The notes below the pieces were generated by a model that was not told the DNA's origin, ran no database searches, and was given only the letters and a program-made list of their open reading frames with translations. From contig JAPLCU010000018.1 in NCBI GenBank assembly GCA_026392045.1, positions 5,417-69,416 of the forward strand: a stretch of 64,000 bases of DNA. Reading direction: 5' to 3'. The position numbers were made by a program, and so were the translations under genes. Of this stretch, positions 17,323 through 60,708 are shown piece by piece (within the stretch, counting starts at the first letter, position 1; each line of letters starts with the position of its first letter). This stretch comes from Armatimonadota bacterium (GTDB lineage Bacteria > Armatimonadota > UBA5829).

Positions 17323-18515
17323 TATTTACCTCCCTGCAGCGGTTTGATCTCGATTGAGACCAGCTTGGTGGATTGTTTCTTAACCCAGATTATAAGATCG
17401 CTGACGGTATCCGTCTTGCGGAAGCCGTAACGGAAATCTGGCCCACGCTTGATGGGTTTGCCGTCTATGCTAAGCGAGATATCGTTCTTTCCCCAGCCTT
17501 TGATTACGAAGGCGGGGTTGTAGACGGGAGATGCTGCGCTGGCTGCAAGCTGCAATTTTAAGGTAGATGGACCGCCACATACTATGTGGTATGCCTTGTC
17601 GCTCTGGTCGAATCCTTTAATCGTAAAAGAAGATTCCGTCCGCGCCGTTAGCTTGGGTGCAGAAAGCCATGAGTCTGGTGTGGTGTCCCTGTAATCAGCA
17701 TTTTTTACCAGGCGCAACATCGTCCTCCAAGACCTGCTTGTTTTGTCTTCAGCGTATGGTTTCAGATTTTCGCCGCGCATTGCCAAAACCCGGATGCGGT
17801 CAGCATCAGCGCTATCCAAAATGGGCCATTGCAAGGGTCCCTCTTGTTGGTATTCGTCAGCCATCGAGCCCCATTCATCGAGTATGCGTGCCAACGACGC
17901 ACCTTGTTTCGCGCCTTTTAGGAGTTGATTATCAGGCTGATACATATATAGAGCGTGACTATAGAGAATCCAGTCTTCCAGATCAGAGCTAAAGAGTTTA
18001 ATCGTCCGCGTAGCATAAGCATCTGGGTAGATTGTATAGTATTCGTCCACCCAGTCGTTCCAATTCGTTATTGGGTCTGTGTTGATAAGCTTATAGTCTT
18101 TGTCGACCAAAGCATAGCGCCATCGCACGACCACGCGGGCATCATTGCTTTCAACTATGCTAACAAACGAATATTTGCACAGCTTGTCCCACTTGGGGCT
18201 CGCGTTGCTTCGCTCCACGCAGCCATCGGAATACCACACGCGCTTCTCATTCACCCAGAAAGGCACGTAATTGGTTCCGCGCCAAAAGACCACTCGATAA
18301 TCATACTCATCGAACCTCACAACAACATCGGCCTTATCGCCGACTCGCCAAAGCGCATCCCATTCGGGGCTGTAATTCAGCTTGGTGTAATAAGCTCCAA
18401 ACCGGCCTTTTCCTTCAGGGCCGTAAGGCAGCTTCAGCGGTGCGGCTGCAAACGCCTGCGCGCTTACAGATAACAGCACAGCCAACGCCAGCCCAACATA
18501 TATTTTGCGGGACAT
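17322..18515 (-). CDS. Secreted protein paralogous to the C-terminal part of the adjacent LamG protein
   Basis: Shared motifs ADVVV(R/K)FDE, DWVDEY, NPAFVIKGWG; GGAGG RBS. Confidence 0.8.
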   Translation of the reverse strand: MSRKIYVGLALAVLLSVSAQAFAAAPLKLPYGPEGKGRFGAYYTKLNYSPEWDALWRVGDKADVVVRFDEYDYRVVFWRGTNYVPFWVNEKRVWYSDGCVERSNASPKWDKLCKYSFVSIVESNDARVVVRWRYALVDKDYKLINTDPITNWNDWVDEYYTIYPDAYATRTIKLFSSDLEDWILYSHALYMYQPDNQLLKGAKQGASLARILDEWGSMADEYQQEGPLQWPILDSADADRIRVLAMRGENLKPYAEDKTSRSWRTMLRLVKNADYRDTTPDSWLSAPKLTARTESSFTIKGFDQSDKAYHIVCGGPSTLKLQLAASAASPVYNPAFVIKGWGKNDISLSIDGKPIKRGPDFRYGFRKTDTVSDLIIWVKKQSTKLVSIEIKPLQGGK

Positions 18516-18625
18516 CCATTTACCTCCTGGTTATGTTTTAAGCATTTACGGTAATTACTTAGTGGATGGGGTTGATATCACCTTCTCTTGAGTTAAAAAA
18601 TATGGGCGGACAGGAGAAATCTCGA

Positions 18626-18654
18626 TTGACAAGAGCGCATTTTGCGTATAGCAT
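18626..18654 (+). promoter_or_regulatory. Sigma70-type promoter
   Basis: TTGACA-17 bp-TAGCAT upstream of 18690. Confidence 0.6.
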
Positions 18655-18689
18655 ATCCAAGGCAGCAAGATTGCTGTCGAGGAGGTTTC

Positions 18690-19040
18690 ATGGATAAACT
18701 ATTAGCCCCCTGCGGGATTGATTGCGCAGAATGCGAGGCTTATAAGGCAACTCAGGAAAATAACCTGGAAGATATGAGAGAGATCGCAGTTAAATGGACA
18801 GAGCAATACCGCACCGAGCTCGCGCCTGAGAATATCAAATGCGATGGCTGCCTTGCGCAGACAGGTCGCAATGGGCGCTACTCGCAGATGTGCAGCGTGC
18901 GCAGATGCGCAACAAGTAAGAAAGTAACAAACTGCGCTCAATGCAAAGATTATGGCTGCGATAGGCTTATTGAGATATTTGCAGTTGCCCCGCAGGCCAA
19001 AGACAACCTTGAGGCGATTCGCCCGAAGAAACGAAAGTAG
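18690..19040 (+). CDS. DUF3795-like cysteine-rich protein
   Basis: APCGIDCAEC, CDGC, CSVRRCA, NCAQC; GGAGG RBS. Confidence 0.8.
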   Translation: MDKLLAPCGIDCAECEAYKATQENNLEDMREIAVKWTEQYRTELAPENIKCDGCLAQTGRNGRYSQMCSVRRCATSKKVTNCAQCKDYGCDRLIEIFAVAPQAKDNLEAIRPKKRK

Positions 19041-19082
19041 ATATTAGGTGTTAGGTCTTAGGTCTTAGTGAAGGAGGATGCA

Positions 19083-19847
19083 ATGGAAAGTCAGATATCG
19101 CAGGAATTAAAGCTCAGGTATTTGCCGGTTGCGATTATTCTCAGTGATGAGAAACCCGAGGGCGCGCTGCAGTTCGCAGAAGGGCATTGGGGCTGCGTTA
19201 TTGCCATGCTGAGCGCTGCTGCGAAGGGTAAGACGGCTGCGTTCGACAGCGATACCGTCACATGCGGCGGCGGCAAGATCGGCCTTGGATTTTGCAGTGA
19301 GTTTGAGGGGCATCCCGGTGGGATTGAATATTTCCTTTCTACCGGCAAGGGCGAAGGGTTCCCTGAAGGCGAGGCCTACAAGAAAACCCCAGAGCTCGCC
19401 AAAGCATTTGTGGACGAGCTTCCCACCACAGATATCCCCACCAGGTATGTAATTTTCAAACCTCTGAGCGAGGTAGACCCGGAGCGCGAAAAGCCGGAGG
19501 TTGTTGTCCTGCTTGCAAACCCCGACCAACTTTCCGCGCTGATTGTGCTCGCCAACTATGATCGGCCCACCTCCGATAACGTGAGCGTGAGTTTCGGCGC
19601 CGGCTGCCATCAGATTTTTCTGCTGCCCTATGCAGAATCCAAGAAAGAGCAGCCGAAGGCAATCTTGGGCGTGACCGATGTCACAGCCAGACCGTATGTA
19701 GACCCCGACCTGCTATCGTTTGCCATGCCCTATGCAATGTTCCTCAAAATGGAAGCCAACATACCCGGCAGTTTCCTTGAGAAGCGCGATTGGAAGAAGG
19801 TGCGAGAACGAATTTTTGGATGCTGCGGGAATGACGAATCGCGATAA
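19083..19847 (+). CDS. DUF169-like protein
   Basis: LKLRYLPVAI, TCGGGKIGLGF, NPDQLSALIVLANY, FGAGC. Confidence 0.75.
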   Translation: MESQISQELKLRYLPVAIILSDEKPEGALQFAEGHWGCVIAMLSAAAKGKTAAFDSDTVTCGGGKIGLGFCSEFEGHPGGIEYFLSTGKGEGFPEGEAYKKTPELAKAFVDELPTTDIPTRYVIFKPLSEVDPEREKPEVVVLLANPDQLSALIVLANYDRPTSDNVSVSFGAGCHQIFLLPYAESKKEQPKAILGVTDVTARPYVDPDLLSFAMPYAMFLKMEANIPGSFLEKRDWKKVRERIFGCCGNDESR

Positions 19848-20351
19848 CGTGGCAATATTAAGCAAACATCAATTCCCGAAGCTATCACCGGCTGATCGTG
19901 CAATAGCTGCGGGAACTCTTGAACGCGCAAATCTGGAAGTGAAGTAGACAAAGCCGTTTCAGATGCTGCGGGAATGACGGCGCGTGATAAGGCTGTGATT
20001 CTCGCCAAACGTCAATTCCCGCAGCTATCACCGGCTGATTGTGTAATAGCTGCGGGAACTCTTGAACGCGCAAATCTGGAAGTGAAGTAGACAAAGCCGT
20101 TATATGCTTCGGGACTGTTTTTCCGTCCCGAAGCATTTCTTTATACGTAAATTATTGATCGAGTGGATTTTCAGATGCTGCGGGAATGTCGTTGACCGAT
20201 AACACAACAAGATTCATCAAACGTCAATTCCCGCAGCTATTACTGGCTGATTGTGCAATAGCTGCGGGAACTCTTGAACGCGCAAATCTGGAAGTGAAGT
20301 AGACAAAGCCGTTCCCGCAGCATCTGAAAGCCGTTCCCGCAGCATCTGAAA
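19819..20351 (+). repeat. Array of three ~143-bp GCTGCGGGAA/TTCCCGCAGC units with a fixed-length variable segment
   Basis: Units start at 19819, 19962 and 20174; the last is bounded by the perfect inverted repeat TTTCAGATGCTGCGGGAA/TTCCCGCAGCATCTGAAA; 22-bp tandem duplication at 20305-20348. Confidence 0.9.
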
Positions 20352-20359
20352 ACCCTTAC

Positions 20360-21214
20360 CTAGTAACTTGCTTTGTATGAACTGCGGACCAGCGGCCCGG
20401 ATTCAACATACCCAAAACCCATATCAATGCATAGCCGTTTTAGCTCAGAAAACTCTTCGGGGGTGTAGTATTTTGCTATTTGAGCGTGGTTTACGGATGG
20501 CGCAAGGTATTGGCCAATGGTCAGAATGTCCACATTTGCCTCGCGAAGGTCTTTCAATGTCTGAATGATTTCATCCCAGGTCTCTCCAAGCCCCACCATT
20601 ATCCCAGACTTGGTGCGTCCTTCGACGGAGCTCAGGATGCTGGGTTTGATGGATTTAGCTTTCGCAAGCAGCTCTATTGAGCGCCAATAGACTGCTTGCG
20701 GGCGCACTTGATCGTAAAGACGGCTTACGGTCTCTATATTATGATTGAGAATTTCCGGGTGGCCGGAGAGCGCCGTTTTCAGAGACAAATCATAACCCTT
20801 GAAATCTGGAATCAGCATTTCCACGCTGCAGCCGGGCAGCGCTTTATGGATAAGCCTGGAAGTCTCGGCGAAGACACCCGCGCCGCCGTCGGAGAGGTCA
20901 TCGCGGGTGACACTCGTGATCACGGCGTGCTTGAGCTGAAGCTCCGATACAGCCTTCGCGACGCGCATCGGCTCATTTTTATCTACCGGCCCGGGCTTGC
21001 CGTGCTTAACCGCACAGAACCCGCAATCGCGCGCGCAAGTATCGCCGAGTATCATAAAAGTGGCCGTGCGCTCGTTCCAGCACTCGCCGATGTTCGGGCA
21101 ATTCGCGCTCTGGCAGACTGTGTTGAGCCGCAAGCTATTCACCAGCGCCTTGATCTCTTCATAATTGACCCCCTGCGGGGCTTTAGCTTTGAGCCATTCG
21201 GGGCGTTTTTGCAT
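20360..21214 (-). CDS. lipA: Lipoyl synthase
   Basis: CQSANCPNIGEC, CARDCGFC, HNIETV, TKSGIMVGLGE, GPLVRSSY. Confidence 0.96.
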   Translation of the reverse strand: MQKRPEWLKAKAPQGVNYEEIKALVNSLRLNTVCQSANCPNIGECWNERTATFMILGDTCARDCGFCAVKHGKPGPVDKNEPMRVAKAVSELQLKHAVITSVTRDDLSDGGAGVFAETSRLIHKALPGCSVEMLIPDFKGYDLSLKTALSGHPEILNHNIETVSRLYDQVRPQAVYWRSIELLAKAKSIKPSILSSVEGRTKSGIMVGLGETWDEIIQTLKDLREANVDILTIGQYLAPSVNHAQIAKYYTPEEFSELKRLCIDMGFGYVESGPLVRSSYKASY

Positions 21215-21293
21215 ATAATTTCTCTGTTCAATAGGATGATTTCTTTGTTCGGGCGGAATCTCTGATCCGCCCGCAAAAGGTGACCGCGACCCT

Positions 21294-22151
21294 TTAAGCT
21301 TTCTTGTGAATGGTAAATAACGGGACTAACTCACTAGCGCGAGCGATGAGCTTGGCGTCTTCGTCGAGTGTTAGGTCAGCGACATGCTCGGCGGCATCGC
21401 ACAAGAGCCACAGAAGCTCTTCATGGCTGGGGCTGATCGCGCAGGTCACTCCCAGCGAAAGTGTGAAGTTTAGTGCGGCGATTGCTTCCTCAAGGGTCTC
21501 CACGGGTTTATACCAGCACTTGGGCCATGTGCGCTCTTCGCCATCTTTCCACGGTCTTAAAGCAAGGGTCTTAAGCGCCAAAATGCCGAGGCCATCGCGC
21601 TTTGCCCGCTCGACGATGCGCTTGCCATAATCTCCGGCATGCCAGCAGGCCCAGTTGAGCGGAGTCATCACCGAGTCAAACGGGAACCGGTCCATCAGCG
21701 CCAGCGCGGCCTCTTCTGTGTGAGCGGAAAAGCCAATGTGCTTGAATATACCAGCCTCACGCGCCGCCAGAAATGTCTCCATGCAGCCGTCGGGCCCGAA
21801 AGCCTGCTCGACCTCTTCTACCGTCTGAACTGCATGGATCTGATAGAGGTCGAAATGGTTGGTATGCGCCAGGCGAAGGGATTCCTCAAGCTCTTCCTGA
21901 GACCCCGCGCGATCTCGGCGAGTGGTCTTGCAAGAAAGAAATATCTGATCGCGATAGGGTTTCAGCGCAGGTCCGAGCATCTTTTGCGCCTCGCCATAGA
22001 TCGGGGCGACATCAAAATAAGTGATCCCACGCTCCACCGCCTGCGCCACGATGCGCGCAGCCTCCGCAGGCTCGGTCTTATCCACCACCAGCCCGCCAAA
22101 GCCCACCACAGAAAGCGAGCGCCCGGTTTTTCCCAATTCACGATAAATCAT
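21294..22151 (-). CDS. Aldo/keto reductase
   Basis: YRELGKTG, GITYFDVAPIYG, DLYQIH, IGFSAH. Confidence 0.9.
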   Translation of the reverse strand: MIYRELGKTGRSLSVVGFGGLVVDKTEPAEAARIVAQAVERGITYFDVAPIYGEAQKMLGPALKPYRDQIFLSCKTTRRDRAGSQEELEESLRLAHTNHFDLYQIHAVQTVEEVEQAFGPDGCMETFLAAREAGIFKHIGFSAHTEEAALALMDRFPFDSVMTPLNWACWHAGDYGKRIVERAKRDGLGILALKTLALRPWKDGEERTWPKCWYKPVETLEEAIAALNFTLSLGVTCAISPSHEELLWLLCDAAEHVADLTLDEDAKLIARASELVPLFTIHKKA

Positions 22152-32105: not shown

Positions 32106-32272
32106 TTTGGTAGGATAGTCTGATGGCCCGATGGTCGGATAGTCCGGAAGGGAATTTGTTCTTTTCCAGAAGTTTGGCTGCGGGAACTCTTGATTGTGGA
32201 GTGTTGATCACTAAGTTTCAGGAGCCATTCATTCAGCATAGAACCAATGAAAACGAAGGAGTGAGAGTGACG

Positions 32273-38563: not shown

Positions 38564-38687
38564 TCAGCCTTGCTTCGGGATAAAAAGCATCCCGAAGCAT
38601 CAAATAAAGGAATTTATTGTCTTGTTGCGGAACGCATAATTTATAAATCATTTTTCTTAATTCATAATAGAAAGGGGGTGATACTAG

Positions 38688-53739: not shown

Positions 53740-53930
53740 CAGGGCGCGGATAAAGTCACAGTGATATACTTCGGGACTGTTTTTCGTCCCGAAGTGTGAG
53801 GTTCTCAAGCGTGCTTCGGGGCGAAAAGGGAGCCCACGAAGCATAGTCCGGCTGATTAGCAGACTTTATCCGGAGGCTGCTAGCCTGATATATTTCATAG
53901 ACAACAATCTTTTACAGAGGTAGATGATAG

Positions 53931-59554: not shown

Positions 59555-59755
59555 AAGTGGAGAGTGGAGAGCTTGTTCTTGGGAGGGCGAAGGTCCCCCT
59601 GAGCCATTTCTCTTCGCAGCTACAAGGCTCGGAGGGAGCCTCGCCCTCCCGTTTTTGCCAAAAAAATTGAATGCTGCGGGAACTTTTTATTGTGCTAAAT
59701 TGGAAATTCTGAGATTTCGGTGTGTCGGGAAACTTGTTCCTGACACCGTATCAGC

Positions 59756-60505: not shown

Positions 60506-60708
60506 TTGATGATCCTCCAAAATGTGGCATATCCTTTGACTTCGCAATTGAATGCTGCGGGAACTCTTGATTGTGCTAAATTTAAAACTCTGAGATTTCA
60601 GCCGTTTCCGCAGCATACAAGGACTCGCCACCTTCGGTGGCGGCATCGGCAGCAGGCTACCGATGCAACCAAGCCCTCCATTCCGGGCTTTCCGCTTTCA
60701 GCTTTCAG

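Follow-up and report, generated by a model that had tools for sequence, protein, structure and literature searches.

The array at positions 19812–20351 of the window (the whole 64,000-nt stretch of DNA analysed in this study) is very probably a tandem cluster of REPIN-type elements belonging to a RAYT-linked repeat family. The element is of a known kind, REPIN/BIME-like, and the family itself is new and has some unusual proportions. An earlier note, made from the sequence alone, had set three readings side by side, namely a guide-like RNA array, an array of diversified peptides and a REPIN cluster. The last of these is the one supported here, because the family is dispersed, extragenic, palindromic and tied to a RAYT gene. 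The question raised by the note can be regarded as settled: the array is not a guide-RNA system of a new type, and it does not encode a series of peptides.

The cluster contains three copies of a repeat of approximately 147 nt (19812–19958, 19955–20101 and 20167–20313; pairwise identity 85–86%) and lies between convergent genes. The start-to-start spacing is 143 nt between the first two copies and 212 nt between the last two; unit 3 is offset by about 70 nt containing a hairpin of a second family, so that the array is not regular. Three units of about 143 nt, each with CTGCGGGAA/TTCCCGCAG arms enclosing a variable segment, had already been described in the earlier note, and this description is confirmed. 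Each unit is composed of a module A, a 25-nt linker and a module B in the opposite orientation. Module A (59 nt) consists of the arm CTGCGGGAA, a 41-nt centre and the arm TTCCCGCAG; module B has the same arms and length, with a different centre and an inverted orientation. The arms measure 9–11 nt, and every arm bears a short tag on its outer side. The outer arm is missing in two of the six modules (B of units 1 and 2), and one mismatch is present in an arm of module A of unit 1. In a complete doublet, the outer ends form an 18-bp perfect inverted repeat, and a 9-nt word recurs at the nesting points of the array. The following features were annotated in the window (coordinates, strand and description):

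19068–19847, plus strand: flanking gene of the DUF169 family
19812–20351, no strand assigned: whole cluster between convergent genes; its six modules follow one another as A, B, A, B, A, B with the orientation alternating, and a 22-nt duplication forms the tail
19823–19881, plus strand: module A of unit 1, 59 nt, 3′ arm with one mismatch
19831–19947, plus strand: 38-codon frame of unit 1, judged non-coding
19882–19906, plus strand: linker of unit 1, 25 nt, which together with the adjacent arms lengthens a 13-bp inverted repeat
19907–19958, minus strand: module B of unit 1, without outer arm
19966–20024, plus strand: module A of unit 2
19974–20090, plus strand: 38-codon frame of unit 2, judged non-coding
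20025–20049, plus strand: linker of unit 2
20050–20101, minus strand: module B of unit 2, without outer arm
20104–20136, no strand assigned: hairpin that belongs to a second REP-like family (also placed at 20107–20133), with a loop of 8–9 nt and the stem CTTCGGGAC / GTCCCGAAG
20178–20236, plus strand: module A of unit 3, centre identical at 39 of 41 positions to a copy on contig C97
20186–20302, plus strand: 38-codon frame of unit 3, judged non-coding
20237–20261, plus strand: linker of unit 3
20262–20320, minus strand: module B of unit 3, both arms present
20305–20351, plus strand: tandem duplication of 22 nt in which the end of module B, outer arm included, is repeated
20360–21214, minus strand: flanking lipoyl synthase gene (lipA), convergent with the DUF169 gene
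32176–32230, minus strand: diverged or partial module of the same family
59669–59715, minus strand: partial module of the same family
60550–60618, minus strand: B-type module of the same family, standing alone outside the cluster

The stop codon and the last ~10 codons of the DUF169 gene fall within unit 1. A promoter and terminator scan detected neither promoter-like nor terminator-like sites in the array, the second-family hairpin having a 9-nt loop that lies just beyond the limit of the terminator scan; this second family has 73 copies in the genome. Contigs assembled from four metagenome runs, compared over 19300–20900, break inside the array; none of them spans it, and no movement of modules was seen.

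The window lies on contig C74 of a 3.55 Mb assembly of 206 contigs, in which the 147-nt unit matches 30 places. The 10-mer arm occurs 102 times over both strands, where about seven occurrences would be expected by calculation, and the 9-mer arms are overwhelmingly arranged in inverted pairs, with 50 or 49 nt from one start to the other. When at most one mismatch per arm was allowed, 46 palindromic modules were counted, including 38 of 59 nt, seven of 58 nt and a doubtful one of 60 nt. A profile search with nhmmer gave 70 module matches (about 69 modules) at approximately 45 loci, and the six-module cluster of the window proved to be the largest in the genome. Only nine of these 70 matches fall inside long open frames (stop-to-stop, at least 150 codons), the corresponding share for random 65-nt segments being 84%. 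The modules are for the most part dispersed and solitary; they also occur as inverted A-linker-B doublets. Many are located within a few hundred bases of contig ends, as expected of repeats, which break assemblies.

Conserved pairing predicted with RNAalifold is limited to the arm stem, which is 9 bp long in both module types, and does not include the centre. The stem often reaches 11–14 bp by means of the flanking tags and a GACG/CGTC word pair. The centres fold hardly better than shuffled sequences, with a mean z of −0.85 in 21 A modules and −0.68 in 13 B modules, and no compensatory changes were found among the arm variants. On one side the modules carry a GATG or TATG tag (27 of 37, with seven more being IS junctions), and on the other an xTAG tag (19 of 37), which takes the form GTAG in only three. 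The GATAA word that the earlier note had placed in a constant layout is a consensus word of the A subfamily that is only moderately conserved. An IS110/IS1111-type element was also observed to target the module arms, the modules not being its own ends; an Rfam search of the IS ends returned no match.

The genome contains eight matches to Y1_Tnp. A 195-aa open reading frame on contig C153 scored 80.4 bits against the NCBIfam model NF047646 (REP-associated tyrosine transposase; cut-off 80) and also matched PF01797. A second copy, 96% identical, is present on C96; both contigs are short and the assembly is fragmented, so the two are possibly assembly or strain variants. A paralogue on C179 (75.3 bits on NF047646) shares 38–39% identity with them. 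Published RAYTs are usually single-copy. An alignment of 15 sequences shows no variation at the two histidines of the HUH motif or at the tyrosine, which belongs to a YIHNNP-type motif. The profile built from 15 relatives had its best PDB match in 4ER8, the Escherichia coli TnpA-REP (E=2.8e-14), ahead of the IS200/IS605 transposases; a PDB search with the single RAYT sequence gave no match, and the profile was needed.

On C153 as well as on C96, about 30 nt separate the end of an upstream A module from the start codon of the RAYT gene. The module adjoins only the upstream side of the gene in this genome, the next one lying 1 kb downstream in direct orientation. RAYT flanks were also surveyed at 15 loci from other genomes, with identities taken from the alignment of relatives. 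All seven loci whose proteins are 44–61% identical to that of C153 are abutted by modules of 56–60 nt at a distance of ~10–60 nt, and six of these seven have modules on both sides of the gene in inverted orientation. None of the eight loci with 28–37% identity has adjoining modules. Among 41 related genomes, 16 contain at least four exact-arm modules, and a RAYT-family match (E ≤ 1e-10) was identified in 15 of these 16 and in eight of the 25 genomes with zero to two modules; because the genomes are related, these counts are descriptive only. The single module-rich genome lacking a RAYT match (G013) has 17 modules.

The full 147-nt unit was found in this genome only, and there is no close relative with empty sites. 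Three other genomes that match the unit share just 22–48 nt of arm-adjacent sequence. The exact arm pair with a gap of 30–55 nt is much more widespread, being present in 21 of 41 related genomes, which cover four of the five families and range up to class level, and a reversed-pattern control gave zero in every genome. The earlier note had proposed that the constancy of loop length be checked, and length proved to be held: 38 of 46 modules in this genome are 59 nt long, and the gap is 39–41 nt in 331 of 372 exact-arm pairs across the 41 related genomes. The centres, by contrast, are unrelated between genomes among the matches listed. Since arms and spacing are shared and centres are not, the arms and their spacing are old and held and the centre sequence is free. 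The centre being essentially unstructured, it seems to be length rather than pairing that is held.

The earlier note also took freely varying loop lengths and uniform divergence to be the mark of an ordinary REPIN. This expectation was mis-set, as published REPINs have a held spacer length, and in the consulted sections of Bertels & Rainey (2011; PMC3116915) both a fixed centre length and uneven divergence are described, so that neither is an argument against a REPIN here.

The claim that the units differ mainly in one segment is borne out, with divergence concentrated in the A centre. Between units, the A centres are identical at 24–27 of 41 positions, the linkers at 22–23 of 25 and the B centres at 41 of 41; outside the A centres, the units are 97–100% identical. 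Across the family, the mean pairwise identity is 62% for A centres (range 14 to 41 of 41 positions) and 66% for B centres, and the A centres of the array are as different from each other as random family members. The term “hypervariable” is overstated, the A centres being homologous members of a family at 62% mean identity. The best relatives found anywhere match the A centre of unit 1 at 30 of 41 positions and that of unit 2 at 28 of 41. The A centre of unit 3 agrees with that of the C97 copy at 39 of 41 positions overall (35 of 35 by BLAST), although the two copies agree outside it at only 20 of 25 positions in the linker and 33 of 41 in the B centre.

Because diverged A centres are embedded in near-identical scaffolds, neither tandem duplication alone nor simple transposition can explain the mosaic pattern. 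It might stem from concerted evolution that halts where the centre has diverged, from A modules inserting independently into a scaffold that had been duplicated, or from centres being exchanged between arms of identical sequence. Donor copies may be hidden by the fragmented assembly, and we conjecture that nested insertion with a 9-nt target duplication could account for the array junctions. DGR-like diversification was considered and dropped, as the differences among A centres, judged by eye, span all base types and are not adenine-specific.

A more specific proposal, which we consider unlikely, is that the 41-nt centre acts as an exchangeable cassette, swapped between loci by the RAYT or by template switching at hairpins. 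The common arms on every module would make swapping between loci possible, and such exchange would explain both the background-level A centres within scaffolds that are 97–100% identical and the sharing of a centre between unit 3 and C97 despite the B half matching at 33 of 41 positions. At the ends of IS200/IS605 elements, guide tetranucleotides direct the choice of cleavage site and target. In a bolder form of the cassette proposal, which draws on this analogy, the arm-adjacent part of the centre may act as a DNA guide for the choice of cleavage site or target.

The two other readings in the earlier note both appear highly improbable. Under the first, the array would be a guide-like structured RNA array (CRISPR/TIGR/bridge-like) whose stems would offer two programmable windows to an effector encoded at another locus, a view that is suggested by the fixed length of the centre between invariant arms and by the strong differences among A centres on a near-identical scaffold. 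The modules, however, are mostly solitary and dispersed rather than arrayed, and their centres are ordinary sequence subfamilies, as illustrated by the presence of the unit 3 centre at another locus (39 of 41 positions). When the variable segments were searched against phage, plasmid and self sequence, as the note had suggested, only members of the family were matched: all six centres matched only family members in the genome, the non-family matches being at chance level (E ≥ 0.02), and searches of 50,697 phage records and 72,556 plasmid records gave no match. Rfam returned only two sub-threshold chance matches on 18500–21500 (mir-2070, 20.6 bits against a threshold of 95; snoR134, 19.3 bits against a threshold of 40), and no promoter-like site is present in the region. 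In line with the note, which saw no adjacent effector gene, the array is surrounded by genes of metabolic or unknown function (DUF3795, DUF169, a 302-aa uncharacterised ORF and lipoyl synthase), and the gene that consistently adjoins modules is the RAYT, a DNA transposase. The second reading, in which the units would be small, diversified peptide genes whose 38-aa products vary in their N-terminal part, meets with similar difficulties. The frames are real in the sense that three intact ATG-to-TAG frames of equal length occupy 19831–19947, 19974–20090 and 20186–20302, just as noted; a few synonymous changes separate units 1 and 2, and 19 of 22 A modules can be read from end to end in the ATG frame without a stop. 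Yet pN/pS in the ATG frame is 0.91, with the five other frames at 0.66–1.14 and none standing out, and the entropy by codon position (1.10, 0.88 and 0.99) has no third-position excess. The frame is also erratic among copies: in the 22 A modules its length is 13–34 codons in 15, 38–40 in four and 82 to more than 100 in three. Four of the six composite copies in which the frame was read keep an ATG-to-stop frame of 38–40 codons, and in one composite copy (C55) a linker longer by 1 nt shifts the frame. The GC-rich arm runs directly up to the ATG, so that a Shine–Dalgarno site would have no spacing; B-type modules and many foreign modules lack an ATG at this position and have C in place of its T, and neither Pfam nor NCBIfam gave a match for the frames.

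A quite different objection concerns the agent rather than the nature of the repeats. The modules might form a MITE-like or REP-like family that is moved or maintained by something other than a RAYT, be it host recombination or a different transposase for which the arms would serve as terminal inverted repeats, in which case the linkage to the RAYT would be incidental. The 18-bp perfect inverted repeat at the outer ends of doublets, the 9-nt word at the nesting points, which can be read as a target duplication, and the presence of modules without a RAYT match in G013 all fit this possibility. We nevertheless regard it as quite improbable, given that modules abut all seven RAYT orthologues of at least 44% identity across families and orders and that a RAYT-family gene accompanies the modules in 15 of the 16 module-rich genomes. 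No other transposase gene consistently adjoins modules, and the IS110-type element uses them as a target.

Under the preferred reading, a REPIN cluster, the RAYT encoded in the same genome, an HUH/Y1 single-strand DNA transposase, would recognise the arm hairpin in single-stranded DNA. It would then cut beside the hairpin and copy or move modules, often into or next to existing ones, and the cluster between the convergent genes DUF169 and lipA may have arisen in this way. The geometry of the unit would yield the 38-codon frames as a by-product, with the ATG at the boundary of the A arm, a combined module and linker length (59+25 nt) that is a multiple of three and the TAG in the B centre. For the two converging transcripts, the hairpins would be at most passive structures on the 3′ ends.

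The full-text collection searched yielded no publication that deals with this arm motif or with Armatimonadota REP or RAYT elements. The present analysis adds a clearly defined REPIN-RAYT family for a little-studied lineage. The family may be of interest to the REPIN field in that class-wide arms and a spacing of 39–41 nt are retained while the centres turn over completely, and in that the centre is largely unpaired. In addition, the mosaic array, together with the arm-targeting IS110/IS1111-type element, offers material for testing how repeats are copied and exploited.

The family resembles several known systems to different degrees. With CRISPR, TIGR and bridge-RNA arrays it shares the alternation of conserved structured segments with variable segments of fixed length; it differs from them in that no effector is adjacent, copies are singly dispersed, and the variable parts are common to several loci and no targets were found for them. 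In E. coli, REP sequences of types Y and Z alternate within BIMEs, joined by a few defined linkers, and tandem arrays occur between convergent genes. Two alternating types, linkers, a tandem arrangement and a convergent-gene setting are likewise present here, and as in the E. coli REPtron the transposase falls in the TnpA-REP (4ER8) protein family, by a profile match at E=2.8e-14. Unlike in E. coli, the tags are xATG and xTAG rather than GTAG, and the protein is too distant from 4ER8 for a match with a single sequence.

The GTAG REPs have stems of 5–13 bp and loops of 2–20 nt according to Table 1 of Di Nocera et al. (2013; PMC3733652). The loop of 39–41 nt in the present family, together with its different tags, sets it apart from that superfamily as delimited in the table. 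A further parallel is provided by RAYT subclasses that, in the consulted part of Quentin et al. (2018; PMC6006769), are bordered by secondary structures described as atypical. As in those subclasses, a RAYT-like gene of ~180–195 aa with a YIHNNP-type tyrosine motif is flanked here by non-canonical hairpins that have copies elsewhere in the genome (PMC6006769). The motif following the HUH core is WK, whereas the table of that study gives WQ or WE (PMC6006769), and a word search of its main text did not return the word Armatimonadetes (PMC6006769).

The family can also be compared with the REPINs of Pseudomonas fluorescens SBW25. In the sections of Bertels & Rainey (2011; PMC3116915) considered here, REPINs are described as two invariant inverted ends with a less conserved spacer whose length matters; they form ordered tandem clusters that arise by insertion beside existing copies, and family-specific clusters adjoin RAYT genes. 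Relative to that description (PMC3116915), the ends of the present elements are only 9–14 nt long and not self-palindromic, and the 41-nt centre lacks the long hairpin of Pseudomonas REPINs, pairs only slightly and shows no compensatory changes. The modules are of two types, A and B, and arm conservation reaches class level although centres from different genomes are unrelated, both of which are differences from the SBW25 elements as portrayed in those sections (PMC3116915). In the main features of the same account (PMC3116915), the two families nevertheless agree. Both have invariant inverted ends and a less conserved spacer of held length, both are dispersed, extragenic and mostly solitary with some ordered tandem clusters, and both possess a family-specific RAYT gene flanked by the same elements.

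An insertion sequence (IS) of the IS110/IS1111 type uses the long modules, the 59-nt REPIN-type elements dispersed in the source genome, as its target. In all nine copies in this genome, the right end of the IS meets a module's 5′ arm at the identical base position, and the same junction base recurs in two related genomes, G006 and G030, each of which carries one complete copy. The left end occurs 13 times and is followed by a DEDD transposase (PF01548 and PF02371). Together, the junctions imply the insertion site TATGC-TG-CGGGAA. The body of the IS is absent from the source assembly, where its ends lie mostly at contig ends; these and the complete copies in extracted loci L064 and L065 are as follows.

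Occurrences of the IS
Ends of source-genome contigs C9, C42, C96, C106, C120, C130, C158, C170 and C179: one end of the IS
Eleven source-genome contig ends, C67:25780-26230 and C177:1-280: the other end of the IS
L064:1420-2790: complete copy
L065:1500-2800, minus strand: complete copy

Several further multi-copy elements terminate contigs in the source genome, with contig-end clusters of 36, 10 and 8 members; one such element is found at 36 contig ends, and another case is a pair of ends with the common word GGGGACATTTTCCCTTTGC.

Downstream of the transposase gene, the non-coding sequence in G006 and G030 repeats 8-9 nt of the left junction and also carries the complement of the right-hand flank of the target, the content that would be expected of a bridge RNA or seekRNA guide. 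Targeting of REP sequences by IS110/IS1111-type elements is already known (PMC1525189, PMC11187229, PMC11208160).

A second REP-like family, with 73 copies across the source genome, consists of a 26-nt hairpin with the stem CTTCGGGAC / GTCCCGAAG, a conserved 8-nt loop and the tag TATA or TATG. Its stem is similar to the long-module arms, and some copies form tandem runs, such as four on contig C102. The window holds three of these hairpins.

Second-family hairpins in the window
20104-20136: hairpin
38573-38597: hairpin
53769-53794: hairpin

The stop codon and final ~10 codons of the DUF169 gene lie, at 19818-19847, inside unit 1, the first A-linker-B repeat of the window, and the present C-terminus of this gene is therefore supplied by the repeat. 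Of the 259 residues of the protein, the DUF169 Pfam domain reaches only as far as residue 231.

In G002, a genome of the same family (68% complete), the RAYT query gave 79 matches at 34-38% identity, many of them in tandem on the same contigs. Such a proliferation of copies of a RAYT/IS200-like gene is unusual. An arm-pair search of related genomes identified no CTGCGGGAA-type modules in this incomplete assembly. On contig C153 of the source genome (locus L034, 856-2556), the RAYT gene is directly followed by a secreted-looking 342-aa ORF (1445-2473) that starts 2 nt past the RAYT stop. A second A module lies only beyond this ORF, in direct rather than inverted orientation, an arrangement that differs from the usual REPtron layout.
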